Positions 664 through 57,716 of a DNA stretch of 64,000 nt are shown here, piece after piece; the first letter of the stretch is position 1; every line of letters starts with the position of its first letter. Under the pieces are notes generated by a model. It was not told the origin of the DNA. It saw nothing but the letters and a program-made list of their open reading frames with translations, and ran no database searches. Source of the stretch: an uncultured Acidobacteriota bacterium (GTDB lineage: Bacteria > Acidobacteriota > Blastocatellia > RBC074). The position numbers and the translations under genes were made by a program. Location of the stretch: NCBI GenBank assembly GCA_963699175.1, contig OY969418.1:7730689-7794688 (forward strand), in the 5' to 3' direction.

Positions 664-688
664 CTACGGTCATAAACATGGGCCATCG

Positions 689-775
689 GCATTTTGCATT
701 CTCAACTCTCCATTCAATTGCAGTAAAGCATGCTCTTTTACTGCACAAGAATGATGAATTGAGAATGAAGAATGC
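689..775. repeat. Imperfect ~85-nt palindrome with 7-nt-periodic arms (heptamer-hairpin family, unit GAATGAN)
   Basis: The right arm reads GAATGAT GAATTGA GAATGAA GAATGCC. The left arm is its imperfect complement (GCATTTT GCATTCT CAACTCT CCATTCA). The inner stem is GCAGTAAAG/CTTTTACTGC. The right arm contains the ATG at 772. Confidence 0.7.
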
Positions 776-3753
776 CGATTGATTTGAGTTACCAGTCACC
801 GCAACAGCGCCTCGCACGCTGCCTGGGAGAGTTGGAATTGCGCAAAGCCCTATCCACTATTCTTTCTTCACTACCCACACAGTTTCATGCCGAGCGGGCG
901 GAACTGCTCGACTTCTTGTTGAAGCAGGGAATACTTTATCGCACGGAGACCCAGCCTGTGCTCTCGCGCGACGGCACTTCGGCCAGGTGGATGCTTGATT
1001 CTTTGGCCGTCACGCTCAGCCCGCGCGGCGCCGAATTGGCCGGGCGCTGCTTGCTCGCACTGCTCAAACACTTCGATGGCAGGCAACTCGCCACCTACGG
1101 TCTGACGGGCGCGCCGCTCCTGCAAGCTTGTCTCTTGCAAGCAGGCGGAGATTATCGCGGCTTGCTCGTGCGTAAAGAGAGAAAACAACACGGCTCGCTC
1201 AAGCTCATCGAAGGACGCATTGAGCCTGACGAGCCGGTGATTCTGATTGACGACTCGATCAGTTCAGGCATGTCGATGGACGAGGGTTGCCGGATTCTGG
1301 AAGAAGCCGGACTGCGCGTAGAAGGCGGCGTGGCGTTGGTGCGCTTCGGTTGGGAGAGCGGCTACGCTTCGCTGCAGGAGCGCGGCTACCACGTGGAAGC
1401 AGTCTACGACATTTGGGACGATTTTATGGTGAAGATGGAGGGCGAGGAGACCGCTTTGCCCAATCCCTCGAAGTGGTTTCCCGAATTTCAATGGAGTCCC
1501 ACGCAAGCGCCTGAAGGATTGCATCCGGCACAGCTTGCCCGCGTGGTGCTGCTGGCTTACCTGGAATCGGGCCAATTGCTGCGTCCGCCGCAACGCCTGG
1601 ACAGGGATTACGATGCGGCGGGCGGAGTCTGGGTCAGTCTCAGGTCGCGTGAGGAAATCTACGAGCGCCACGCGCGTGACGGCTTTTGGCACTTTCCCGG
1701 CGAAGCCAGAGGGACGCCGGCTGAAGACCTGGTCAAAGCGTGTTTGAGAACCGCTGATGAACTCCCGCGTGGCGCTGAAGGCCGCGCGCTGGTAGAAAGC
1801 AGTCACCTCGCCGTCACCTTTTTCTCTGCGCTGGAAGAATGCACGGTTGGGCAACTCGATAATGATCGCTATGGCATTGTGGTTTGCAGCCGGGAGCGCA
1901 CCGGGCGCATGGGCGGCGCGCTCCCGCGCATGCCCGGCATCGGCAACGAGTGGGAGCAATTCCGACACGCCGGGCGCAGAAACGGCGAGCTACTTTCTTT
2001 CGAGCCTTATGTGATTTATCGCCACGAAGTGTTCAAAGCGGTCGAGCCGGAGGCAGTATGGCAACCCTCTGGTGTGCCGCTCGAACCCCAACTCTTCTGG
2101 CATCAGAATCCAGCTATCTGTGAGCCAGTAGCGGAGCGCGCGCGCGACATTGTCATCGCTCGCCTGCTCGGCGTGGCTGAAACTACCTCGGCTTTGGCAG
2201 ATGACCTGCTGCCCGCTGACCTGGATTCCGTTTACGTGACAGTTTATCTGCAAGGCCAGGTGCGCGGTTGCATGGGTTCGGTTGTTACAAAGCTCGATGA
2301 AGACATCCGCAAGCTGGCGCTGGCGGCGCTCAAGGACGAACGCTTTGACGACGAAGCACAGGAAGCCGACGCGAACAATGTCGCGGTGACAGTCTCGCTT
2401 CTATTCAACCCGCTGGAACTGGGCGATTATGCACCGGAAGAAGTCGGCTGGCGCATTCGGCACGGCCAGCAAACGCTGATGGTTTATCAAAACCAGCGCG
2501 TCGGTCTGCTGCTGCCTTTCGTAGCCGTCACCCATAACTTTGATCGTGATGAATTCGTCGCCGAACTGATAGACAAAGCCGGCATCACTCGACCGCCTTA
2601 TCAATGGTGCCGTTTTGATTGCGCTACCTGGCGCGCCGATGCGACGGGCATCGCGCTGCTCGAAGGCATGTTTGCGCCCGCGCCGGAAGCGGCTTCCCTG
2701 GATGAATTGATCGAGCGGCTCGCACCCTTGCAGGTGCAATACCTCATCCGTCAGCAAGCGGACAATGGCTCGTTGTATCTGCGCTATGAGCCTTTTCAGG
2801 ATCAGCTTTATCAAGGGATTTCTGCGCCCCGGTTGGCGCACGCCGCCTGGGTGCTGGCGCGCGCCTGCCCAGTTTTCGGCGGAGCGGAGCTAAAAGAAGC
2901 GCGTGACAAGATCATTGATTACCTGGTGAAAACAGTTCAAACAGACGAACAGGGCTGTTGGTTGAAAGTAGGTGACGACGACTCGCCTTCGGTTTCCGAG
3001 CTTGCTTTTCTGTTGCTGGCGCTCTGCCAGCTTCCCGAAGCTGATAGCCGCCGCGCCCTGGCTGCGAGCCTCGCGTCAACTCTCTGGTCGAGTATCAATG
3101 CACACGGGCGCATCAACACTCATCTCGCGCCGGTTGATGATTCTGATGAATTTCAAGATTACTTTCCGGGACAGGCGTTGTTGGCGCTCGGAGCGGCTTA
3201 TCAAGCTGGCGTTACCGAACTACAAGAGAACAAACTTGAGCGCGCCTTCAAATACTACCGACATCGCTTTCGCCACCAACGCGATTTCGGACAAGTATCC
3301 TGGCTGATGCAATGTTTTGCTACTTGGTGGAAAGCAACAGCTAAGCCGCAGTTTTCTGAGTTAGTTTTTGAGATCGGCGATTGGATTCTACAGTATCAAC
3401 AAGAGAAGACCGGAGCGTTCATCAACGATCATCAAGCTGACACGCCCGGTTACACGACGGCCTTATATCTGGAAGGTATTGCGGTAGGTGCGAAGTTGGC
3501 GGCTTTGTCTGGCGATACGGAACGCCATCGCCGCTATCTCGAATCGCTCACGCGCGGATTCAAGTTCTTAGATCGGTTGGTAATTCAGCCACGCGATGCC
3601 TCTTTGTTGCCAAACGCGGAATTTGCAATTGGTGGGTTGCGCCAAAGTTTATATGCCAGTGAGGTACGAGTGGATTTCGTGCAACACTCACTGTCTGCGC
3701 TGCTTGAAGCCTACGCCTTGGCCGAACCTGTTCGGGCAATGGTACAGGGATAG
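772..3753 (+). CDS. Multidomain protein: type I phosphoribosyltransferase + two AMMECR1-like domains + C-terminal QW-repeat alpha/alpha-toroid (terpene-cyclase/prenyltransferase-like)
   Basis: 993-aa ORF with an ATG start. It has a PRPP loop (EPVILIDDSISSGMS) and an AMMECR1 signature (VYLQGQVRGCMGS) preceded by a degenerate AMMECR1-like copy (GGVWVSLRS...GIVVCSRERTGRMGGALPRMPG). QW-like motifs are QQADNGSLY, QTDEQGCW and QQEKTGAF. Confidence 0.6.
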   Translation: MPIDLSYQSPQQRLARCLGELELRKALSTILSSLPTQFHAERAELLDFLLKQGILYRTETQPVLSRDGTSARWMLDSLAVTLSPRGAELAGRCLLALLKHFDGRQLATYGLTGAPLLQACLLQAGGDYRGLLVRKERKQHGSLKLIEGRIEPDEPVILIDDSISSGMSMDEGCRILEEAGLRVEGGVALVRFGWESGYASLQERGYHVEAVYDIWDDFMVKMEGEETALPNPSKWFPEFQWSPTQAPEGLHPAQLARVVLLAYLESGQLLRPPQRLDRDYDAAGGVWVSLRSREEIYERHARDGFWHFPGEARGTPAEDLVKACLRTADELPRGAEGRALVESSHLAVTFFSALEECTVGQLDNDRYGIVVCSRERTGRMGGALPRMPGIGNEWEQFRHAGRRNGELLSFEPYVIYRHEVFKAVEPEAVWQPSGVPLEPQLFWHQNPAICEPVAERARDIVIARLLGVAETTSALADDLLPADLDSVYVTVYLQGQVRGCMGSVVTKLDEDIRKLALAALKDERFDDEAQEADANNVAVTVSLLFNPLELGDYAPEEVGWRIRHGQQTLMVYQNQRVGLLLPFVAVTHNFDRDEFVAELIDKAGITRPPYQWCRFDCATWRADATGIALLEGMFAPAPEAASLDELIERLAPLQVQYLIRQQADNGSLYLRYEPFQDQLYQGISAPRLAHAAWVLARACPVFGGAELKEARDKIIDYLVKTVQTDEQGCWLKVGDDDSPSVSELAFLLLALCQLPEADSRRALAASLASTLWSSINAHGRINTHLAPVDDSDEFQDYFPGQALLALGAAYQAGVTELQENKLERAFKYYRHRFRHQRDFGQVSWLMQCFATWWKATAKPQFSELVFEIGDWILQYQQEKTGAFINDHQADTPGYTTALYLEGIAVGAKLAALSGDTERHRRYLESLTRGFKFLDRLVIQPRDASLLPNAEFAIGGLRQSLYASEVRVDFVQHSLSALLEAYALAEPVRAMVQG

Positions 3754-11820: not shown

Positions 11821-11956
11821 AAACGCCGTGACTTTACCTTGCCAACGCGGAAAGACAAAGGCTTGGCAAGCTGTCAGGTGGGCATTAAACTGCGCGTGCG
11901 AATTTGCCTGTTCTGGCGACTCTCTTCATCAACAGCACCAACGTGGAAGGAAGACG

Positions 11957-18881: not shown

Positions 18882-18969
18882 GCGGTACAGACCGGAGCGA
18901 TAGCGACCGGGTCCTTGGGTTGTGTCCAATCGGAGGACCCGGTCACTACTGCTCCCGGTACTGTACCGC
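18882..18969. repeat. REP-A hairpin copy (intact)
   Basis: GCGGTACAGACCGGAGCGATAGCGACCGGGTCC ... GGACCCGGTCACTACTGCTCCCGGTACTGTACCGC. Same family as 17606-17677 and 35978-36066. Confidence 0.8.
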
Positions 18970-29736: not shown

Positions 29737-29755
29737 TGTTTGGACTCCTTGGAAA

Positions 29756-29839
29756 ATGTCCGACAAGCTGCCAGCTTGTCGCTGACTTTGCTATGCGTCC
29801 AACCGAAAGACCGCGACAGGCTGGCAGCTTGTCGGACAT
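29756..29839. repeat. REP-B double-hairpin palindrome
   Basis: ATGTCCGACAAGCTGCCAGCTTGTCGC (29756-29782) pairs with GCGACAGGCTGGCAGCTTGTCGGACAT (29813-29839). Each arm is itself a small palindrome (CGACAAGC..GCTTGTCG). Confidence 0.8.
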
Positions 29840-29985
29840 TGCGAGAAACAGCCTGATTTTATTGGCGAAATCGTTCGTTCAGCCTTAAGTGGCGATGATA
29901 GTGGAGCATTACAAGGAGTGTCAAACAAGAGAACTTGGCGGCTACGTGCTTGTGCTGTGCTGAGTAGGCTGTCTGTTATTGCGGC

Positions 29986-31224
29986 TCAGGCGAAACTTTC
30001 CTCCGCCCTACCACGTTGCGAACGATAAATGAAATTAGCCCGGCCAAAGCGCACTTCACAGCCGTCATCCAAGCGCACTTCCTTGATGCGTTTGCCGTTG
30101 ACGAAAGTGCCATTGCTGCTGTCTAGATCGAAGAGCAAGTATTGATCCTCTTCGACGATCAAGCGGGCGTGGCGTTTGGAGACCGAAGGGTGTTCGATCA
30201 CGAAAGAGTTGTTGAGTGTACGCCCGACGAAGATTTCATCGCGGTTGAGGATGAAGGCGATGCGCTCGTCGCCATCCGGCGTGAACGAAACGAAGTGCGG
30301 GCGGTTGTCCAGATTTTCGCGCGCCGGAAGGCGGATGTTTGCGCCGCAGCGCATGCAGAACTTCGCGCCAGGGCGTTGTGGTTCGCTACAGACAGGACAT
30401 AGCTCCAGTTCTTCGGGATCAGGAATAATGACCCCACAACGCGGGCAAGGCATGCCGGCTTTGCCCTTCGCGCCGCATTGCTGGCAGTAACGGCGCGTCG
30501 GCATCAGCATCGTACCTTCGCGGTGTGGCGAAGTCTCGGCGTGATACTTAGTGCGTGAGCGTACCCACAGGAAGAGCGCAACCATCGCAATGACCAGCAG
30601 CACGAAAAAGCCATTGTGCCACTTGGTCGCGCCTTCCAGCATCGTGTTGAAGAGTGCATGCAACATTGCCGCAATCAGCCAGCCTTTGACGACAATGGGC
30701 GCGCGTTCACTGGTCAGGTTGGGTTTGGTCTTGGCTTCGCAGAGCGCCAGACCCCAGACAGCGGAGAAAAGCGCATGGCCAGGGTTCGAGAGTGGCCCGC
30801 GCAGCAATACAAACAGCGGATTGTTTTGCGAGATGTAGAAGATATTTTCGACGGCGGCAAAGCCTAGCGCGGCAGCGGCGCTGTAGATGACACCATCGAG
30901 CGGCTCGTCGAATTCCGGCTGGCGGTAAGCGTAAATCCAGACCATCAGCATCTTGATGCCCTCTTCGACCGGCCCGACGACGCAAAAGAAAAAGAGAATG
31001 TCCGAGATTTGCGTCTTGCCCGCAAACGCATAGAAGAGATTGCGCCCAATGACATTGAGGAAGAGCGCCGGAATCGTCGAGAACGCGCCCAGCGCAAAGG
31101 TGATGGCGATCAGCCGTAACGGCGGGCGTTTGTAACGGCTATGCGTGTAGAAGTAGACCAGCCAGACTACGCAAGGCAGCAGCGAGATGAAGGGGATGAA
31201 GATGAGTTTTTGCAGGTCAGTCAT
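29986..31224 (-). CDS. PrsW-family intramembrane protease + double zinc ribbon + C-terminal FHA domain
   Basis: PrsW motifs are VEEGIKML, GFAAVENIFY, HALFSAVWG and HALFNTMLEG. There are four CxxC pairs (CQQCG, CPRCG, CPVCS, CMRCG). The FHA segment is IFVGRTLNNSFVIEHPSVSKRHARL...LDSSNGTFVNG. Confidence 0.8.
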   Translation of the reverse strand: MTDLQKLIFIPFISLLPCVVWLVYFYTHSRYKRPPLRLIAITFALGAFSTIPALFLNVIGRNLFYAFAGKTQISDILFFFCVVGPVEEGIKMLMVWIYAYRQPEFDEPLDGVIYSAAAALGFAAVENIFYISQNNPLFVLLRGPLSNPGHALFSAVWGLALCEAKTKPNLTSERAPIVVKGWLIAAMLHALFNTMLEGATKWHNGFFVLLVIAMVALFLWVRSRTKYHAETSPHREGTMLMPTRRYCQQCGAKGKAGMPCPRCGVIIPDPEELELCPVCSEPQRPGAKFCMRCGANIRLPARENLDNRPHFVSFTPDGDERIAFILNRDEIFVGRTLNNSFVIEHPSVSKRHARLIVEEDQYLLFDLDSSNGTFVNGKRIKEVRLDDGCEVRFGRANFIYRSQRGRAEESFA

Positions 31225-31226
31225 TC

Positions 31227-31335
31227 GATTTTAGATTTTGGATTTTGGATTTTGGATGGCGGATTTGTTGAAATGCTGCTTGGTCTTGCTGCGCTAAATT
31301 CTCAATCCAAAATCCAAAATCTAAAATCCAAAATC
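31227..31335. repeat. Heptamer-hairpin (unit GATTTTG / CAAAATC)
   Basis: The left arm is GATTTTA GATTTTG GATTTTG GATTTTG GATGGCG GATTT. The right arm is AAATTCTCAATCCAAAATCCAAAATCTAAAATCCAAAATC. It exactly fills the gap between two same-strand genes. Confidence 0.85.
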
Positions 31336-33124
31336 AATTCTCTTCGCTCTTGCGTTTCAAAATCACCATCGTCAGGTCATCCACGCTCTTGGCTTTACCG
31401 ACGAAGCGTTGCAGGGCGTCGTCAATGCGGTCGCGCAGGCCGGCAGCGGTGCGCCCGCGATTGCGCTGGGCGATTTCGATCAGACGAGCTTCGCCGAACT
31501 CTTCTTCTTGCTCGTTGAGGCTTTCGGTCACGCCATCGGAATAGATTACCAGCACATCGCCGGGTTCAAGCTGCACCAAACCTTCATGATAATCGCCGAA
31601 GGGTGTGATACCGACCGGAAAACCGCCGATGTCCAGGCCCGTAACTTCACCCGAGGCGCGCACGAGGAGCGGCGAGTTGTGGCCACCGTTGATGTAGGTC
31701 AATTGATGCGTGCGCGGATCGAGTTCGCTGTAAAAGAGCGTCACATAGCGGTTGGCGGGCGTGTTGTCGTAGATGTAATGGTTGATCTCGCTGACGATCT
31801 CACTTGGCGAGAGCCGTGTGGTGGCTTGCGCGCGCACGGCGGCATGGATGGAAGACATCAGCAGTGCCGCGCCCGTTCCTTTACCCGATACGTCACCAAG
31901 TGCGATGACGTGACGACCGTCGCGCTTCTCGATGAAATCGAAGTAGTCGCCGCCGACTTCGTAACAAGGGAAGCTCACGCCCATCAAATCGTAACCTTCA
32001 ATGGACGGCGACGCCGAAGGGTGCAAGCGCAATTGAATTTCGCTGGCCAGGGCCAATTCGTTGGCAAGGCGCTTCTGCTCCTGCTGCGCGTCGAGCAGGC
32101 GGACGTTTTCGATGCGGATGGCGGCGACGCTCGCGATCAGCGTCAGCAGTTCAAGGTCGCGTTTGGTGAAACGGTTGGTGTGAACGGGGCTGTCAACGTA
32201 GATCATGCCCAGCACGCGCCCTTCGACCATCAAGGGCACGGCCATGATTGAGCGGATGCCGGTGAGCATGATGGATTGATTCGATTGGAAGCGCGGATCT
32301 TGTTGCGCGTCGGAGGTGAGCAGTGATTTGCCGTGCTGCAAGACCTGCTCGGTAATCGAGCGGCTGAGCGAAACTTCATTACTGTTCGGCCCGGTGCTGC
32401 GCAACTTTTGGGCTTTGCAAACGAGTTCGGGCGGCGCGTTCTTCTTGCCCTCCGGCGGTTCGAGCAGCATCACGTAGCCGCGATCTGCCTGGTTCACCTG
32501 AAAGACGCACTCCAGCACTTGCCCCAAGGTTTCGTCGAGCGACATCGGCGAGAGCAGCGTCACGCTCACGCGGCTGATGACGGCCAGCGTGTCGTCTTGC
32601 GAAGCGGTGACCGGCCCACTCGGTTGCACGCCAACTGGCCCGGATTTGTGCAGCGATTGCGCTAGCAGTGTTTGATGGCTGGAATCAATCGTAGTTAGCA
32701 GACTCTCCTTTGAATTGCGCGAGCCGGAGGCAATCGTCACTTCGGGAGCCGATGGATGCGGCGTGTCGGCCAGCAGCACCTGTGTGCGGCCTTTGGTGCG
32801 GCTCGTGTCGGCGCGGTCGTTGAATTCGATCTCAGTCTCGCCGATGCGGATGACATCGCCATCACGCAAGAGGGCTGGGGAAGTCAAGCGCGCTTCATTG
32901 AGCAGCGTGCCATTGGCGCTGCCCAGGTCGCTCAACCAAAAGCTGGTGTCGCCTTTCTTGCGCACTTCAGCGTGTAGGCGGGAGGCGAATGGGTCTTCCA
33001 AACAAAGATCGTTGCGCGCAGAACGGCCAATAGTGACGCGGGGACGATTCAATTCGGCAACCGAATCGCTACCGGGTGCGCTGGCGGAACCAGCGGGGGC
33101 AACACGAACAATCAAACGTGGCAT
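31334..33124 (-). CDS. FHA - GAF - PP2C/SpoIIE-type Ser/Thr phosphatase
   Basis: The FHA segment is VTIGRSARNDLCLEDPFASRLHAEV...LGSANGTLLN. There is a central GAF-like region. The phosphatase motifs are GGDYFDF, ALGDVSGKGTGAALLMS and YSDGVTE. Confidence 0.85.
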   Translation of the reverse strand: MPRLIVRVAPAGSASAPGSDSVAELNRPRVTIGRSARNDLCLEDPFASRLHAEVRKKGDTSFWLSDLGSANGTLLNEARLTSPALLRDGDVIRIGETEIEFNDRADTSRTKGRTQVLLADTPHPSAPEVTIASGSRNSKESLLTTIDSSHQTLLAQSLHKSGPVGVQPSGPVTASQDDTLAVISRVSVTLLSPMSLDETLGQVLECVFQVNQADRGYVMLLEPPEGKKNAPPELVCKAQKLRSTGPNSNEVSLSRSITEQVLQHGKSLLTSDAQQDPRFQSNQSIMLTGIRSIMAVPLMVEGRVLGMIYVDSPVHTNRFTKRDLELLTLIASVAAIRIENVRLLDAQQEQKRLANELALASEIQLRLHPSASPSIEGYDLMGVSFPCYEVGGDYFDFIEKRDGRHVIALGDVSGKGTGAALLMSSIHAAVRAQATTRLSPSEIVSEINHYIYDNTPANRYVTLFYSELDPRTHQLTYINGGHNSPLLVRASGEVTGLDIGGFPVGITPFGDYHEGLVQLEPGDVLVIYSDGVTESLNEQEEEFGEARLIEIAQRNRGRTAAGLRDRIDDALQRFVGKAKSVDDLTMVILKRKSEEN

Positions 33125-33137
33125 AGGGGATTCCTAT

Positions 33138-33264
33138 CAGGGAAAAGCAAAAGGCAAAAAGCAAATATCAAAAGGCAAAAGTGTAAAACCTGCCTTTTAG
33201 TTGAGAGAAGAAGGTGCCGACCTTAACTTTTGATATTTGCCTTTTGCCTTTTGATTTTTGACTG
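33138..33264. repeat. Heptamer-like hairpin (unit approx. CAAAAGG / CCTTTTG)
   Basis: The left arm CAGGGAAAAGCAAAAGGCAAAAAGCAAATATCAAAAGGCAAAAG pairs with CTTAACTTTTGATATTTGCCTTTTGCCTTTTGATTTTTGACTG. It fills the gap between the phosphatase start and the upstream gene's stop. Confidence 0.8.
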
Positions 33265-35061
33265 CTACCGCTCCTGAAAACTATTCTGGAAACTTTTGCC
33301 TGGCACCGGCTCTTTGCGCGCCTCGGCCTGTTTGGCTTGGGTCGCCTTGAGCAGCCCTTTTGACTGCCGCTCTAGTTCTTTTTGCTGGCGCTCTAGTTCT
33401 TTGCGCGCGGGTTTCTCAATCTGCTTGGCGGCATTCTGCGCGATCTGCGCATAAGGCCCCGCTTCACACTTCTTGAAATACTCGAAGGCTTTGATGAGTT
33501 GGCCCAGCCCTTTGTAAGAGCCACCGAGAAAGTAATAAATGTCCTTATCACTCGGCGTCAGCCGCACCGCCTCGTGCAACTCCTTGAGTGCCGCGCCGAA
33601 TTGGCCAATGTTGAAATAGCGCTTGCCTAATTCTTTGTGATGTTGCGCCACCAGCGTAGGATCGGGCGTCTCCAGCGGGCGCAGCGGATTGAAGTTCGAG
33701 AGTGAACGCGCACCAGGCGCGGCAAATGGATTTTGGGGAATCAGCGCAACTTGACTGCGCGCCGTTGTGTTGGGCAGCAGCACTGGCCCCAGGTTTTTCC
33801 GTCCACTCGTACGACGCGGACGCCCGCCCTGAGCGTGATTGCCCGGCGTCGCTTGCGCCAGCGCGTCATCCAATTCTTCGATAGCTTCGAGCGCCCGTGT
33901 CGCTTCCGGGCTGGATTGATTCATTGTGATGATACGTTGGTATTGTGCGCGCGCTTCGCTGAGATTGCCTTTGGCGCGATGCATCTCGGCCACCTTAAGC
34001 CGCGCGCTCAGATTTTCCGGCACCACCTTGAGCAGGCCATTGTAGGCTTTCAGCGCTTCATCTGTACGGCCTGCACCTTCAAAGGTCTCCGCCAGCAACT
34101 GGCGCGGTCCTGGCCGATCGGGCGTTAATTCAATCGCCTTGCTCAAATCTGCCGCTGCCGTTTCGACTTGGCCGCCTTGTCGTGCGCGTTCGGCATTTTG
34201 GATCAACTGCTCACTTTGATCTACGGGCGAAAGCAAGTTACGCCCCGCATTTTGCGCATTAGCTGAGTTGGCTCTTTGATTGTAATAAAGATAAGCCCCG
34301 CTACCCAGCAACAGGCAGGCTAACAGGCCCGCCGCCACGCGCAGGAACAAACCAGCTTGTGGGTGCTCGTGTAAACCAGAGGCCTCGGCCACCGCAACGG
34401 CGGGCGGCATTGATAGCTTGCCGGAATTTAAGCCAGTTGTCTGCAGCGGCCCTGAGTTGCGCGCCGCATTCGGCGGCAATGGCCCGGTTCTCACCTTAGG
34501 GGTTGGGTTGCTAGTCAACGGGCCGGAATTCCTGGCCAGGGCAGATACTACTGGGGGTGTAGCGGTCGTTAGTTGATTGGCCTGCGTGGTTACTTGCGCT
34601 GCCGCCAATTTGTCGGCGGCATTTTGGGCCAGGCGTTGCGATAGACTGCTGGCAGCCGTCTGTTTGATTTGACGCGCATCTTCTTCCTGTTTTTGCTCGA
34701 TGAGGTGCGCGGCGCGCTTACGCTGCTGATCTTTACTAGCTGCCAGCCGCTCACGTCTAGGTAGCGGCGGAGCCGGCGGTGGAGGCGGAATAGAAGTAGC
34801 GGCTTGTTCGGCTACCGGTTCTTCTGTCGCTGCGCTAGTAGCAGATTTACTGCTGGGGGAAGAAACGATGCGAAGTTGCGACTTCGCCGGTGAGGTAGCC
34901 GAATTAGCTGAACCTTGACCGTCAGGATTTGGCGCGTCGGCGCGCGGTTGGGCCGTGCTGGCTTTCGTCGCCTGCGTGTCTAAGTCAGTCCCACACTGAC
35001 GGCAGAATCTGGCGGCCACTCCATTTGCCGCTCCACAACTCCCACAATAATTCACAGTCAT
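33265..35061 (-). CDS. N-terminal zinc ribbon - low-complexity linker - TM - TPR repeat protein
   Basis: The zinc ribbon is MTVNYCGSCGAANGVAARFCRQCG. It is followed by an Ala/Pro/Ser-rich region, the TM LFLRVAAGLLACLLLGSGAYLYY and C-terminal TPR-like repeats. Confidence 0.7.
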   Translation of the reverse strand: MTVNYCGSCGAANGVAARFCRQCGTDLDTQATKASTAQPRADAPNPDGQGSANSATSPAKSQLRIVSSPSSKSATSAATEEPVAEQAATSIPPPPPAPPLPRRERLAASKDQQRKRAAHLIEQKQEEDARQIKQTAASSLSQRLAQNAADKLAAAQVTTQANQLTTATPPVVSALARNSGPLTSNPTPKVRTGPLPPNAARNSGPLQTTGLNSGKLSMPPAVAVAEASGLHEHPQAGLFLRVAAGLLACLLLGSGAYLYYNQRANSANAQNAGRNLLSPVDQSEQLIQNAERARQGGQVETAAADLSKAIELTPDRPGPRQLLAETFEGAGRTDEALKAYNGLLKVVPENLSARLKVAEMHRAKGNLSEARAQYQRIITMNQSSPEATRALEAIEELDDALAQATPGNHAQGGRPRRTSGRKNLGPVLLPNTTARSQVALIPQNPFAAPGARSLSNFNPLRPLETPDPTLVAQHHKELGKRYFNIGQFGAALKELHEAVRLTPSDKDIYYFLGGSYKGLGQLIKAFEYFKKCEAGPYAQIAQNAAKQIEKPARKELERQQKELERQSKGLLKATQAKQAEARKEPVPGKSFQNSFQER

Positions 35062-35430
35062 TGCTTTAATCCCCACAAAAGATCACTACAAGTTGGATGC
35101 TGTTGCACGGGGCTGACCACGCAGGAACGTAGCCATTGGGGCACAGTTTAACCACTCGTTGTTGGCGTGGTATTCAAGCCGGGATGCCATGGGGGATGGC
35201 CGCCGCTTGTGCCAACAAAACTCCGTCCCGGTGGGGAACGATCTTTAGTCTGTTGTAGCTACGGCGCGCTCATCATTGCATGATTGATGATGTGCCGCAA
35301 CCCTGCCGGGACGCCGAAATGATTAAAGCTCGGTTCGGTACAAACTAGAAAAAGGAAACGAGTCGCTCAAACAGAAATTTCAATTGGAGTTACCTTGGTC
35401 GTCAGCAAAAGCGAGTCGCCTGCTTAAGCC

Positions 35431-35977: not shown

Positions 35978-36066
35978 GTCGGTACTACAGGGAGCGATAG
36001 CGACCTAGTGATTTAGGTTGCGCTTAATGCGGAGAACCAGGTCGCCATTACTCCCTGTACCGCACC
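35978..36066. repeat. REP-A hairpin copy
   Basis: GGTCGGTACTACAGGGAGCGATAGCGACCT ... AGGTCGCCATTACTCCCTGTACCGCACC. It lies between the RDD and kinase genes. Confidence 0.8.
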
Positions 36067-43572: not shown

Positions 43573-43729
43573 CAAAAAGCTGTAGTGGGAAAACGGGGTG
43601 GGATGATGGTGATGGCGTAGGGGCAGACCTGCGTGCCTGCCCTGCAGCGGCAGGGACGCGAGACCAGGGCAGACACGCAGGTCTGCCCCTACGTCTCACC
43701 CCATTTCCCCGCTACCCAAAAAGCTGTAG
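43573..43729. repeat. MITE-like long palindrome flanked by a 13-nt direct repeat
   Basis: CAAAAAGCTGTAG occurs at 43573-43585 and 43717-43729. The core stem is GTAGGGGCAGACCTGCGTG (43617-43635) / CACGCAGGTCTGCCCCTAC (43674-43692). The outer arms also pair (GGGAAAACGGGGTGGGA / TCACCCCATTTCCCC). Confidence 0.75.
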
Positions 43730-49399: not shown

Positions 49400-49477
<78 letters not shown>

Positions 49478-50555: not shown

Positions 50556-51200
50556 ATGAGTTTTGATGCCAGTGTTTCATTGAATGTGCAGACGCGCGCT
50601 GAGCATGGCAAGAATGCCGCGCGGCGCTTGCGTGCTGACGGCTTTGTGCCGGTCACGGTCTACGGCGGCGGCAACGAGCCGCTTAGCGGCGCCATCAACA
50701 AGCGCGAATTGGGTGCGCTGCTTCGTGCGCATGGCCGCAACAAAATCTTCAATCTGAATTACGACGGAGCAGCTTCGTCAGTCAAGATCGCCGATATGCA
50801 ACTCGATCCGATCAAAGGCACGCTGATACATCTTGACTTGATGCGCATCTCGTTGACCGAAAAGTCCGAGTTCGAGGTGACGATCAAGATCGTCGGCGAA
50901 CCGGAAGGTGTGAGGACCAACGGCGGTATCCTGGGCATTCCCACTCACGCGCTTAAGGTGCGCTGCCTGCCGGGCGATCTGCCTGATGTGATCGAGGTGG
51001 ACGTCAGCAAGCTGGACATCGGCGGCCACATCTACGTCAAGGATTTGCAACTCGGCGACAAGGTCGAAATCCGCACCAGCGGTGACGTGACCATCGCCAC
51101 GGTCGTTGCGCCGGCGGCTGAAGAAGTTACCGCGCCGACTGAAGAAGCCGCTGCCGAGCCTGAAGTGATCAAGAAGGGCAAGGCAGAAGAAGAGAAGTAG
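50556..51200 (+). CDS. rplY: 50S ribosomal protein L25 / general stress protein Ctc
   Basis: RAEHGKNAARRLRADGFVPVTVYGG is the L25 N-terminus, and the protein has an acidic C-terminal extension. Confidence 0.9.
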   Translation: MSFDASVSLNVQTRAEHGKNAARRLRADGFVPVTVYGGGNEPLSGAINKRELGALLRAHGRNKIFNLNYDGAASSVKIADMQLDPIKGTLIHLDLMRISLTEKSEFEVTIKIVGEPEGVRTNGGILGIPTHALKVRCLPGDLPDVIEVDVSKLDIGGHIYVKDLQLGDKVEIRTSGDVTIATVVAPAAEEVTAPTEEAAAEPEVIKKGKAEEEK

Positions 51201-51203
51201 CTC

Positions 51204-51284
51204 GAATGCGGATTTCAGGTTGCGGATTGCGGATTTCTTGAAATAAGGCGCATTCCGCATTCCGCATTCCGCATTCCGCATTCC
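51204..51284. repeat. Heptamer-hairpin (unit GAATGCG / GCATTCC)
   Basis: Five perfect tandem GCATTCC copies (51250-51284) face a degenerate complementary arm GAATGCG GATTTCA GGTTGCG GATTGCG GATTTC. The repeat ends 1 nt before the pth ATG. Confidence 0.9.
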
Positions 51285-51285
51285 T

Positions 51286-51846
51286 ATGTGGTTGATCGTG
51301 GGCTTGGGCAATCCCGGCGCTGAGTACGAATGGACGCGCCACAACGCCGGTTTCATGGTCATTGACGAATTGGCGCGGCGCACCGCACAAAGCGTGCGTG
51401 TGAAAGAATGCCAATCGCTCACCGCGCGGACGCGTATCGGCGGAGTCGAGGCGTTGCTCGTAAAGCCGCAAACTTTCATGAACCTGAGCGGCGTGGCGAT
51501 CGCGCAGTTGAAAAGCAAATACGAAATTGCCGACACAGCGCAGGTGCTCGCCGTCACGGACGATTTCGCGCTGCCCTTCGGCAAGTTGCGCGTCCGAGCC
51601 AGCGGCAGCGCGGGCGGGCACAACGGCTTGAAGTCGCTGATCGCCAAGCTCGACACGCAAAACTTCCCGCGTGTGCGGCTGGGCATCGCGCCTGATCATC
51701 CGCTGAGCAATTCCGCCGATTTCGTTTTGGCGGAATTCCCGCGCAAAGATCGCGCGGCGCTCGCCACGCTGGTCGAGCGTGCGGCAGACGCCGTCGAAGT
51801 TATTTTGACAAACGGCATCGCGGAAGCGATGAGCCGGTTTAATTGA
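51286..51846 (+). CDS. pth: Peptidyl-tRNA hydrolase
   Basis: LIVGLGNPGAEYEWTRHNAGF and GSAGGHNGLKS. Confidence 0.95.
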   Translation: MWLIVGLGNPGAEYEWTRHNAGFMVIDELARRTAQSVRVKECQSLTARTRIGGVEALLVKPQTFMNLSGVAIAQLKSKYEIADTAQVLAVTDDFALPFGKLRVRASGSAGGHNGLKSLIAKLDTQNFPRVRLGIAPDHPLSNSADFVLAEFPRKDRAALATLVERAADAVEVILTNGIAEAMSRFN

Positions 51847-51849
51847 AAA

Positions 51850-51895
51850 CCGAAGATCGAAGATTGTGGAAAACGCCCACGATCATCGAATCTCC
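51850..51895. repeat. Short heptamer-type hairpin (CGAAGAT x2)
   Basis: CCGAAGATCGAAGATTGTGG pairs imperfectly with CCACGATCATCGAATCTCC, about 13/18 by eye. Confidence 0.5.
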
Positions 51896-51946
51896 TTGCT
51901 TGCTGACTTACGCTCAGCAGGCTCGATTATCCATAAGGAGGAAACA

Positions 51947-52360
51947 TTGAGAACGTATGAAGTCAGCTTCATCGTCAATCCCAACACGACTGAAGATGAT
52001 CTAAAGAAACTCACCGGCCAGCTCGAACATATCATTACCGATCAGGGCGGCAAGATTACCAAGACCGACCACCAGGGCCGCAAAAAACTGGCCTACCGCA
52101 TCGGCAAGTTCGACGAAGGCAACTACACTTTCCTTTACCTCGAAGGTAGCGGGCGCGAGATCGCCGAAGTCGAACGCCGCCTGCGCGTCAACGACGCAGT
52201 CATTCGTTACATGACCGTGCGCACCGATGAGGATTTGAAGCGCGCCGAAAAGATGAAGGCCAAGCGTAAAGGCGCTGCCGCGGCGCCACGCCGCACCGAT
52301 GACGATCTATCCGACCTCGGTCTGAGCGAGGAAGAGCGTGAAGCATTGGAGGAGATCTAA
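51947..52360 (+). CDS. rpsF: 30S ribosomal protein S6
   Basis: The TTG at 51947 lies 7 nt after AAGGAGG. (M)RTYEVSFIVNPN is the canonical S6 N-terminus. The listed longer ORF start is rejected. Confidence 0.9.
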   Translation: MRTYEVSFIVNPNTTEDDLKKLTGQLEHIITDQGGKITKTDHQGRKKLAYRIGKFDEGNYTFLYLEGSGREIAEVERRLRVNDAVIRYMTVRTDEDLKRAEKMKAKRKGAAAAPRRTDDDLSDLGLSEEEREALEEI

Positions 52361-52401
52361 AACCGCTGTTTTACACAGCCGGACATACGAGGTGAATAAC
52401 T

Positions 52402-52671
52402 ATGGCATTCAGAAACGACCAAGATGACGACAAGGGCGGCAGAGGTCCCAAGGGCCGCCCCATGCGCCGCCGCCGCGTTTCCAAACTCACGGCTGAGCGC
52501 ATTGATTACATTGATTACAAAGATGTGAAGCTGCTGCAATCGTTCATCGCCGAGAACGGCAAGATTCTGCCGCGCCGGCTTTCAGGCCTCTCGGCCTACC
52601 AGCAGCGCAAAATCACCGAAGCAGTCAAGCGCGCGCGCAACATCGCGCTGCTGCCTTACACAAAATATTAG
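52402..52671 (+). CDS. rpsR: 30S ribosomal protein S18
   Basis: [53 protein letters not shown]. Confidence 0.95.
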
Positions 52672-52745
<74 letters not shown>

Positions 52746-52763
52746 TGGTGGAGGATTTGAATC

Positions 52764-53231
52764 ATGGCAATGATGGAAGTTTTACTACGCGATGACGTAG
52801 ACAACTTGGGCGCGCGTGGCGAAGTCGTCAAAGTGCGCGCCGGGTACGGACGCAATTACTTGCTGCCGCAAGGACTGGCGGTGCAGGCGACACCCGCCAA
52901 CGTCAAACGAATCGAAATGCAGCGTAAGGTGTTGCTCAAGAAAGCCACCGAAGAGAAAGCGGTGGCCGAACAGCAGGCTGAGCTGCTCAGGGACGTCACG
53001 CTCGAATTCGCCCGCAAGGTCGGCGAGCACGGCCTGCTTTACGGCTCGGTCACTTCGATGGATGTCGCCGAGGCTTTTGCGGCTAAAGGCTACGAGATCG
53101 AGCGCCGAAAGATCACACTGAAAGACCCGATCAAAGAGATCGGCGAATACGAAGTGCCCGTCAAGCTCCACCGCGAAGTCACGACCAATGTCAAAGTCGT
53201 CGTGAAGAGCGAAGCGGAAGCGGCGGCCTAG
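52764..53231 (+). CDS. rplI: 50S ribosomal protein L9
   Basis: MEVLLRDDVDNLGARGEVVKVRAGYGRNYLLPQGLA. A GGAGG SD lies upstream. Confidence 0.95.
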   Translation: MAMMEVLLRDDVDNLGARGEVVKVRAGYGRNYLLPQGLAVQATPANVKRIEMQRKVLLKKATEEKAVAEQQAELLRDVTLEFARKVGEHGLLYGSVTSMDVAEAFAAKGYEIERRKITLKDPIKEIGEYEVPVKLHREVTTNVKVVVKSEAEAAA

Positions 53232-57622: not shown

Positions 57623-57716
57623 GTTCGACAAGCCGGCAGAACTTGTCGGAGGCTCGGCTAGCGAATCATTGGGTTTGACGATTAAACCTAGGACAAGCTC
57701 TGTCAGCTTGTCGAAC
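57623..57716. repeat. REP-B double-hairpin palindrome copy
   Basis: GTTCGACAAGCCGGCAGAACTTGTCGGA ... TAGGACAAGCTCTGTCAGCTTGTCGAAC. Same CGACAAGC/GCTTGTCG core as 29756-29839. Confidence 0.75.

Follow-up and report, generated by a model that had tools for sequence, protein, structure and literature searches.

Heptamer-repeat palindromes in the intercistronic spacers of Blastocatellia (Acidobacteriota)

Why would a bacterial genome carry, in one spacer after another, palindromes whose arms are tandem 7-nt repeats, with a repeat unit that changes from locus to locus? The question is raised by a 64,000-nt stretch of contig OY969418.1 from an uncultured Acidobacteriota bacterium (hereafter the window), in which six heptamer hairpins fill the stop-to-start spacers between same-strand genes. 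A preliminary description, made from the letters of the window, had recognised a common architecture in these loci, (7-mer)n - loop - (complementary 7-mer)n, and had taken them to be something other than copies of one mobile element. The architecture defines a real, non-random class, and palindromes of period 7 are widespread in the Blastocatellia (Acidobacteriota). The elements appear to arise and renew in place and not to be mobile copies: identical arms are found with unrelated loops and flanks, and hairpins persist at orthologous spacers while their units are replaced.

Six heptamer hairpins in the window

Tandem arrays were located with Tandem Repeats Finder (TRF) and a separate period scan, and arms with an inverted-repeat search; the z-score of each predicted fold compares the element with its own dinucleotide shuffles. 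All six loci were recovered by these means at or within a few nt of the positions first proposed for them, and Pfam matches bear out the gene context, in which two elements bracket a phosphatase gene and the others lie in a ribosomal cluster or upstream of an AMMECR1-domain open reading frame (ORF). The phosphatase is preceded by a gene for a tetratricopeptide (TPR) protein and followed by one for a PrsW-family protease. In the phosphatase-PrsW spacer, the element at 31227-31335 (minus strand) sets GATTTTG/GGATTTT units against CAAAATC units in arms of 40 nt (31227-31266 and 31296-31335, 88% complementary) with TRF period-7 arrays at 31227-31257 and 31304-31335 and a fold of -41.6 kcal/mol (z -7.2). 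Its first unit overlaps the phosphatase stop codon (31334-31336) and its last ends 2 nt before the PrsW start (31222-31224). In the TPR-phosphatase spacer, the element at 33139-33263 (minus strand) has CAAAAGG units facing CCTTTTG units in arms of 32 nt (33143-33174 and 33227-33258, 94% complementary), period-7 arrays at 33139-33181 and 33226-33263, and a fold of -46.5 kcal/mol (z -5.6). It begins 1-2 nt past the TPR stop codon (33265-33267) and ends about 14 nt ahead of the phosphatase ATG (33122-33124), so that the AGGA Shine-Dalgarno sequence stays free. Both of these elements are also documented by orthologs.

Hairpins occupy three of the four internal spacers of the L25-pth-rpsF-rpsR-rplI cluster. 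The L25-pth element at 51204-51284 (plus strand) pairs a degenerate GCGGATT 5' arm with a 3' arm of five perfect GCATTCC units; its arms (51204-51233 and 51254-51283) are 30 nt long and 80% complementary, its TRF period-7 arrays lie at 51207-51235 and 51249-51284 (the latter with 5.1 copies and 100% match), and its fold reaches -39.3 kcal/mol (z -5.2). The L25 stop codon lies 3 nt before it and the pth ATG (51286) 1 nt after it. In the rpsR-rplI spacer, the element at 52668-52745 (plus strand) has a degenerate GGTGACA-like 5' arm and five perfect CTACTGT units in the 3' arm (TRF array 52711-52744, 4.9 copies, 100%), with a fold of -31.8 kcal/mol (z -2.8); it overlaps the rpsR stop (52669-52671) and ends ahead of the rplI Shine-Dalgarno sequence (GGAGGA, 52750) and ATG (52764). 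The pth-rpsF spacer holds a short element at 51854-51893 (plus strand) of two CGAAGAT units and an imperfect partner (-17.3 kcal/mol, z -4.2), and full heptamer hairpins occupy the same spacer in seven relatives (L003, L005, L007, L009, L010, L025 and L026). The last two elements are weak members of the class, one with two units and the other with a degenerate 5' partner. The sixth element, at 685-779 (plus strand), consists of degenerate GAATGAN and complementary units in 43-nt arms (685-727 and 737-779, 81% complementary), with a TRF period-7 array at 747-774 and a fold of -45.3 kcal/mol (z -8.6). An ORF at 106-663 ends 21 nt before it, and the AMMECR1-domain ORF (772-3753) has its first in-frame ATG (772) within the 3' arm of the element.

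The arms pair in folding predictions, as had been proposed, and no dinucleotide shuffle matched the fold stability of any of the six stretches (z from -2.8 to -8.6). One or both arms contain at least four copies at five of the six loci, the exception being 51854-51893 with two. The loop sequence differs between all elements of the window. When the window was scanned strictly for periods 3-12, arrays appeared at period 7 alone (4 against 0.0 in shuffles), and a relaxed scan returned 12 period-7 arrays against about one expected, with 0-5 at other periods.

Period, persistence and arm structure among relatives

A scan for Pth yielded 80 loci, 38 of which have the Acidobacteriota L25-pth-S18-L9 order; arrays of period 7 were compared with those of periods 4-12, and an inverted partner was counted within 160 nt. 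The 38 Acidobacteriota loci (675 kb) contain 54 period-7 arrays, 39 of them with an inverted partner, and at most four arrays of any other period. In 43 other loci, mainly from Firmicutes (629 kb), there are nine period-7 arrays, three with an inverted partner, and at most three arrays of any other period. The same holds for 450 kb of independent metagenome contigs, where, among the (GGATTTT)3 matches listed, 200 period-7 arrays were counted against at most 11 of any other period. The consistency of the 7-nt period, first noted at the six loci, thus extends to both samples. With a slightly relaxed threshold 50 hairpins were found, 46 of the 50 being intergenic in sequence that is 88.5% coding by simple ORF calls. 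The period is dominant and not exclusive, since hairpins of period 8 occur in L027, L039, L052 and L088.

These 8-nt-unit hairpins have the same architecture and lie in the L25-pth spacer of L027 (GAGTCATT) and at 9851-10000 in L088 (GACAAGGA), 6736-6764 in L039 and 14658-14795 in L052; one of them occupies a spacer where relatives have a hairpin of 7-nt units. Long heptamer arrays were also seen in metagenome-assembled genomes (MAGs) of gut Oscillospiraceae/Ruminococcaceae, at 7376-7642 in L029 (TTCGGAA) and at 16931-17098 in L054 (TTAGGAA, about 11 copies). As the L054 array has an inverted partner, the architecture is found in Firmicutes too.

The orthologous spacers give the clearest view of how the elements change. 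The phosphatase loci compared comprise the window and eight contigs (L081-L088), with 72-91% protein identity, all of which have the TPR-phosphatase-PrsW gene order. The phosphatase-PrsW spacer contains a heptamer array in nine of these nine orthologs and a full hairpin in at least seven; L082 has a GCGGATT array with no clear partner, and the L086 contig stops inside the 3' array. The unit is GGATTTT in the window, GGATGAA or GGGATGA in L081, L085 and L087, GCGGATT in L082, L083, L084 and L086, and GCGGAAT in L088, and wherever the hairpin is full its two arms carry reverse-complementary units. L087 groups with L084 as its sister in the protein tree (93% identity) but carries the unit of the window clade, so the unit has been replaced more than once. 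RNAalifold predicts 26 pairs in the seven complete spacers, with compensatory changes, on both sides, at 16 of the 26. Across the seven aligned elements GGA / UCC is invariant every 7 nt, and the other three or four positions vary.

Other spacers keep their hairpins less regularly. The CAAAAGG hairpin of the TPR-phosphatase spacer is common to the window, L081, L084 and L087 and is partial in L085; L083 has a degenerate form, L082 an unrelated palindrome, L086 a 372-nt spacer and L088 a period-8 hairpin. About half of the Blastocatellia-type loci have a heptamer hairpin in the L25-pth spacer, even where Pth is about 50% identical, often with the unit ATTGCCG, one base from the GATTGCG of the window; in more distant Terriglobia-type loci this spacer is short and plain. 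Hairpins with unrelated units fill the S18-L9 spacer in the window, L001, L026 and L027, in most relatives the spacer measures merely 10-40 nt, and one metatranscriptome contig has an empty version beside L026-like flanks. The number of units differs between orthologs, a polymorphism that the preliminary description had suggested looking for. A metagenome contig from a relative about 89% identical is short of 7 nt at 52707, where the CTACTGT array begins. The contigs of the closest metagenome (X1) break off at the arrays. Where soil-metagenome contigs were aligned to the window, depth spiked to several hundred to several thousand exactly at the arrays (5010 at 31270-31363), and the contigs at these spikes have the same arms with unrelated flanks and different loops.

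In L009, L014 and L017 a second, unrelated perfect palindrome lies in the loop between the heptamer arms of the L25-pth hairpin, and such loops may be sites of insertion or growth for other palindromic elements.

Changes in one arm are often matched in the other. In 59 hairpins, 48% of the 5'-arm deviations from the unit consensus are mirrored at the paired 3' position, a figure somewhat inflated by the chosen register, and a shift of the 3' arm by one unit lowers the share to 15% (Fisher p=1e-17). Within the window, mirroring is plainest in the 33139-33263 element, where CAAATAT faces ATATTTG. One arm can also expand alone, as perfect five-copy arrays with degenerate partners show (51249-51284, 52711-52744 and L001). 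There is, moreover, an order to the arms. Since a palindrome reads alike on both strands, the identity of the 5' arm is intrinsic to the element; in that arm G outnumbers C in 45 hairpins and C outnumbers G in 9 (p=7e-7), the exceptions having mostly the balanced ATTGCCG unit. Among the metagenome matches listed, 22 of 22 GGATTTT hairpins read 5'-(GGATTTT)n...(AAAATCC)n-3', and the hairpin caller placed the G-rich arm 5' in 28:0 cases for GGATTTT and 17:1 for other units. The downstream arm tends weakly to be the more perfect one (26 against 16, p=0.03). Solo GGATTTT arrays divide 5 to 6 in orientation relative to genes, on crude and unreliable ORF calls that place many arrays inside spurious ORFs.

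The units themselves had been thought unrelated from one locus to the next, a view that does not hold. The 110 arrays comprise 65 canonical units, with a GC content of 43% against 56% for the loci and mostly no G run of three or more. No tetramer is as strongly enriched among distinct units as GATT/AATC, at about threefold (18 against 5.1 expected, and 14 against 5.5 in a second sample), and AATCGGC, AAAATCC, AAATCGT and AATCCGC recur across genomes and loci; GATTTTG and GCGGATT have a GGAT/GATT core in common. For this shared vocabulary the simplest idea would be descent by point mutation followed by homogenisation. Seeding of units from flanking genes was considered and rejected as a general rule (11 of 59 against 8.6 in permutations, P=0.22); two cases resemble it, GATTTTG in the 3' end of the phosphatase gene and TTCATCC in the 5' end of the PrsW gene.

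Probable origin of the palindromes and a possible role in operon transcripts

On balance, the elements are probably heptanucleotide simple sequence repeat (SSR) palindromes that renew in place and are transcribed as intercistronic stem-loops, with a function that can be proposed from their sequence and position. Within an arm, replication slippage would expand, contract and homogenise the units, 7 nt being strongly preferred, and template switching or hairpin-templated repair (the quasipalindrome mechanism) would copy changes from arm to arm; together, the two processes would let the palindrome survive the turnover of its sequence. The perfect one-arm arrays, the 7-nt gap in a relative, the mirrored variants and the concerted replacement of units fit the local generating mechanism that the preliminary description had put forward. 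Quasipalindrome template switching has been shown to homogenise the arms of inverted repeats (PMC7202029, PMC8604942). It was described at single loci in E. coli and yeast and not in a genomic class of elements, and heptamer hairpins would be a further substrate for it.

Within operon mRNAs the elements would form long intercistronic stem-loops of -30 to -55 kcal/mol, each bringing the upstream stop codon and the downstream start to the foot of one helix. The starts of pth (51286) and PrsW (31224) lie within 1-2 nt of the hairpin 3' arm and lack a Shine-Dalgarno sequence, and PrsW likewise follows directly on the 3' arm with no Shine-Dalgarno sequence in all orthologous contigs; a stem-loop would hide both starts. 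Clear Shine-Dalgarno sequences precede rpsF (AAGGAGG), rplI (GGAGGA) and the phosphatase gene (AGGA), those of the phosphatase and rplI lying just outside the 3' arm. The effect of the structure would be to couple or to insulate the translation of adjacent cistrons. The G-first polarity would fit selection at the RNA level, in which the C-rich, G-poor arm is never free for the loading of Rho or RNase, because its G-rich partner has already been transcribed and the C-rich arm would not be exposed as a single strand. Covariance models of Rfam 15, run on the window at the gathering score, found no family at the elements, the sole match being a tRNA at 49403-49474.

In favour of transcription, soil metatranscriptomes include contigs of 1.6-2.1 kb with arrays of this type in their interior, although these contigs may include carried-over DNA. 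Several observations weigh against the explanation as a whole. Template switching at the DNA level alone would yield the same covariation as that seen in the mirrored arms and the 16 compensatory pairs of 26, and an expanding selfish repeat, bounded by functional neighbours, would likewise come to abut stop and start codons. Sense and antisense folds are equally stable (16 against 17 in 34 hairpins between co-directional genes, p=0.49), and the hairpins thus lack the G-U signature expected from selection on one RNA strand. Hairpins occupy 14% of co-directional, 9% of convergent and 6% of divergent spacers, proportions that, in small numbers, do not differ significantly. The S18-L9 hairpin, being absent from most relatives, is dispensable there. 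Purely local slippage does not predict the recurrence of a few GATT-core units across loci and genomes, and the proposed mechanism leaves the preference for 7 nt unexplained.

In the soil metatranscriptomes the contigs of L026 break at the arrays. At 2515-2548 of L026, runs X7 and X8 contain short contigs that consist wholly of mixed heptamers (ATTTTAGATTTT... GGAATTGGGGATTGGGAAATTC) at a depth of 184-218, where neighbouring mRNA contigs have a depth of 3-20; the mixed-heptamer depth reflects either collapsed loci or an abundant heptamer-array RNA.

Some of the same observations can be turned into an account with no function at all, in which slippage repeats made palindromic by template switching are by-products, self-perpetuating 'selfish' structures in tolerant non-coding DNA. 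This account is possible, although on the unlikely side. It takes the equal stability of the two folds at face value, derives the covariation and the mirrored variants from arm-to-arm template switching alone (PMC8604942), and reads the expansion right up to stop and start codons as that of an unconstrained repeat. The variable presence of the S18-L9 hairpin and the decayed or replaced forms of the TPR-phosphatase spacer in L082, L083 and L086 agree with it, as does the absence of a regulatory role for the Xanthomonas repeats in the study devoted to them (PMC4692102). It has more difficulty with the phosphatase-PrsW spacer, where nine of nine orthologs keep the array despite 72-91% identity and complete turnover of the unit, since the deletion bias of bacteria would be expected to remove neutral inserts of 100 nt over such a distance. 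The strict G-rich-arm-first polarity would need some directional mutational cause, or else selection, and the genes that start at the 3' arm with no Shine-Dalgarno sequence suggest that expression has adapted to the structure.

In the opposite direction, the renewing SSR palindromes might amount to more than has been proposed here. They would then be a polar, lineage-conserved class of functional intercistronic RNA elements that couple translation or shield operon mRNA from Rho, and whose sequence is free to turn over because the periodic palindrome alone matters. A dedicated repeat generator or reader, such as a heptad-reading protein or a templated repeat-adding activity, could likewise take the place of generic slippage, a thought prompted by the recurrence of the GATT-core vocabulary and the near-exclusive period of 7 nt. 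Even taken together, these two extensions appear improbable.

One known reader of contiguous WATCACW heptads, in direct or inverted order, is the omega repressor of pSM19035. By analogy, each heptad of an array might be a binding site for a sequence-specific protein that recognises DNA (like ribbon-helix-helix repressors on contiguous 7-bp heptads) or RNA (like CsrA on GGA motifs, or cold-shock proteins on heptamers), a decidedly improbable reading although the heptads do carry candidate motifs. The invariance of GGA / UCC every 7 nt in the seven aligned phosphatase-PrsW elements, the enrichment of GATT/AATC among distinct units and the fixed convergent arrangement speak for such a protein, and CspB is noted to bind heptamer repeats (MacGregor, 2015; PMC4679880). 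Yet one protein cannot read all of the units, as many have neither GGA nor GATT (CAAAAGG, CTACTGT, AAGACCA, GGCAGTG), and in folded RNA the motifs would be paired and not exposed.

Insertion by a transposase of non-autonomous mobile elements, with heptamers as terminal inverted repeats, is very improbable. Elements of this kind, resembling MITEs (miniature inverted-repeat transposable elements) or repetitive extragenic palindromic (REP) sequences, could explain why GGATTTT, GCGGATT, CCTTTTG and ATTGCCG reappear across many unrelated loci and genomes, with spikes of metagenome depth, why S18-L9 spacers are filled in some relatives and empty in others, and why other palindromes are nested in the loops of L009, L014 and L017; unrelated REP-like families are, besides, present in the window. 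They could not easily explain why identical arms enclose loops with unrelated sequences and lengths (7-166 nt), and identity with a MITE was rejected for this reason. Nor do they account for 65 units in 110 arrays or for orthologous elements that swap their unit in place and keep the exact stop-to-start position. No GTAG or CGTC head of the kind found in REPs (PMC3733652) is present. By eye, as opposed to a systematic search, no flanking direct repeats were seen at the window elements, and there is no transposase among the annotated genes adjoining them, the part of the window that was screened.

A role as Rho-independent terminators or attenuators, one of the functions first suggested, is just as improbable: the elements are strong stem-loops 3' of stop codons, and the U-rich 3' arm of the CAAAAGG element (CUUUUGCCUUUUG...) could in a slipped register mimic a stem with a U tract, but a consensus terminator and promoter scan of the window, with terminator loops of 3-8 nt allowed, found nothing beyond chance at any element, most of the 3' arms are rich in A and C and lack a U run beyond the stem, arrays are internal to long metatranscriptome contigs, and termination would be harmful within the ribosomal-protein/pth cluster, which contains three of the elements.

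Neighbouring genes, related repeats and significance

The genes next to the phosphatase elements are all on the minus strand. The phosphatase (31334..33124) is an FHA-GAF-SpoIIE (PP2C-type) protein (Pfam SpoIIE 2e-51, FHA 4e-20, GAF 6e-18), located between a zinc-ribbon/TPR protein (33265..35076; Pfam) and a PrsW-family intramembrane protease with zinc-ribbon and FHA domains (29986..31224; Pfam PrsW-protease 1e-42, FHA 6e-20). The cluster rplY(L25)-pth-rpsF(S6)-rpsR(S18)-rplI(L9) lies on the plus strand (50556..53231; Pfam), and its order is kept in the 38 Acidobacteriota loci. Homologs of the window phosphatase at 69-91% identity are labelled Blastocatellia or Acidobacteria, and the window Pth is 71% identical to its best match in the genome collection (L001) and about 50-55% identical to those of Pyrinomonadaceae/Blastocatellia MAGs. 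L001, the closest relative in that collection (Pth 71%, L9 75%), is labelled 'uncultured Heliomicrobium sp.', a label that looks wrong given its acidobacterial L25-pth-S6-S18-L9 order and its heptamer hairpin.

The elements can mislead annotation. In L087 the called PrsW start (11797) is inside the heptamer hairpin, and the conserved N-terminus MSNLQQLIFIP begins at 11867. Heptamer hairpins can thus mislead start-codon calls, and they also break short-read contigs, in metagenome-assembled genomes. Downstream of PrsW, the DnaB helicase gene has an intein (Intein_splicing, LAGLIDADG) in L087 (13164-15509) and none in L084 (13220-14584), although the two relatives are 93% identical.

Palindromes of other kinds are dispersed in the window. 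Those at 29755-29840 and 57623-57716 (-61.6 and -45.9 kcal/mol) have a common core, CGACAAGC...GCTTGTCG, and lack the 7-nt period, and a related GCTTGTCG palindrome lies within the L25-pth heptamer hairpin of L017; together they look like a separate REP-like family. The palindromes at 18894-18955 and 35986-36059 (-55.5 and -42.9 kcal/mol) have GGAGCGATAGCGACC on one arm and form a dispersed, non-periodic family. A near-perfect palindrome at 43616-43693, with 29-nt arms (CGTAGGGGCAGACCTGCGTGCCTGCCCTG) that are 97% complementary (-78.1 kcal/mol), is single in the window.

Over-representation of heptanucleotide repeats in several bacterial phyla has been known since 1990-2007, and both their function and the preference for 7 nt are unexplained. 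The closest precedent is found in Xanthomonas, with its GGGAATC repeats, and in Nostoc PCC 7120, with GGGGA(C/T)T repeats; these repeats are biased to intergenic positions near the ends of ORFs (Rehm et al., 2015; PMC4692102). Each Xanthomonas genome has 70-75 convergent pairs of arrays on opposite strands, able to form stem-loops; the repeats are mostly transcribed, conserved in position and variable in length, and no function was found for them (PMC4692102). As cited there from Mrazek (2007), a preference of slippage for heptamers is known, but unexplained, in several bacterial groups (PMC4692102). The convergent pairs have the same G-rich-arm-first polarity as the elements described here. 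However, Xanthomonas has one dominant unit per genome, capable of forming a G-quadruplex, whereas the Acidobacteriota (Blastocatellia) have dozens of mostly A/T-rich units, few of them quadruplex-capable, and the inverted form, a subset in Xanthomonas, is here the rule (39 of 54 arrays). The preliminary description knew of no account of inverted heptamer arrays in Acidobacteria, and the searchable literature indeed yielded no report from this phylum; as a general architecture they have been described, since the convergent GGGAATC arrays of Xanthomonas were reported as capable of forming stem-loops (PMC4692102).

Other known repeats resemble the elements in part. The short tandemly repeated repetitive (STRR) sequences of cyanobacteria are also intergenic 7-nt tandem units of several families, for which polymerase slippage has been proposed, but they are mainly direct arrays, and systematic palindromes, mirrored variants and arm polarity are outside that description. 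The TAACTGA repeats of Beggiatoaceae, cyanobacteria and Bacteroidetes are likewise intergenic heptamer arrays, which often end within 1 nt of a start codon and for which a role in translation has been proposed; unlike the hairpins described here, they are mostly direct (MacGregor, 2015; PMC4679880). REP sequences, bacterial interspersed mosaic elements (BIMEs) and MITEs such as Nezha are also intergenic palindromes that form stable stem-loops in operon transcripts, and REPs are credited with the stabilisation of mRNA and with effects on termination and supercoiling (PMC3733652, PMC3184786). They are, however, dispersed copies of one sequence, with conserved heads or terminal inverted repeats, often with target-site duplications and a cognate transposase. 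The heptamer elements have unrelated loops and flanks and differing units and evolve in place; their arms, 25-45 nt long, are made of heptamers and share no head, whereas REPs and BIMEs are recognised as palindromes of 20-40 nt with a GTAG/CGTC head, present in many near-identical copies and associated with a RAYT. What is new with respect to these earlier descriptions is the vocabulary of many units, the dominance of the palindromic form, the concerted turnover of units, the mirrored variants and the quantified polarity.

The Blastocatellia thus add a phylum-level case in which the inverted, hairpin form of the heptamer array is the rule. Three regularities make the question of its meaning testable, namely the persistence of hairpins in a spacer through the turnover of their units, the mirrored variants and the strand-independent order of the arms, the G-rich one leading. 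Should they work as RNA, the elements would represent a widespread, unannotated layer of operon organisation in abundant soil bacteria; if they are purely mutational, they would offer a clean natural system for slippage and quasipalindrome template switching.

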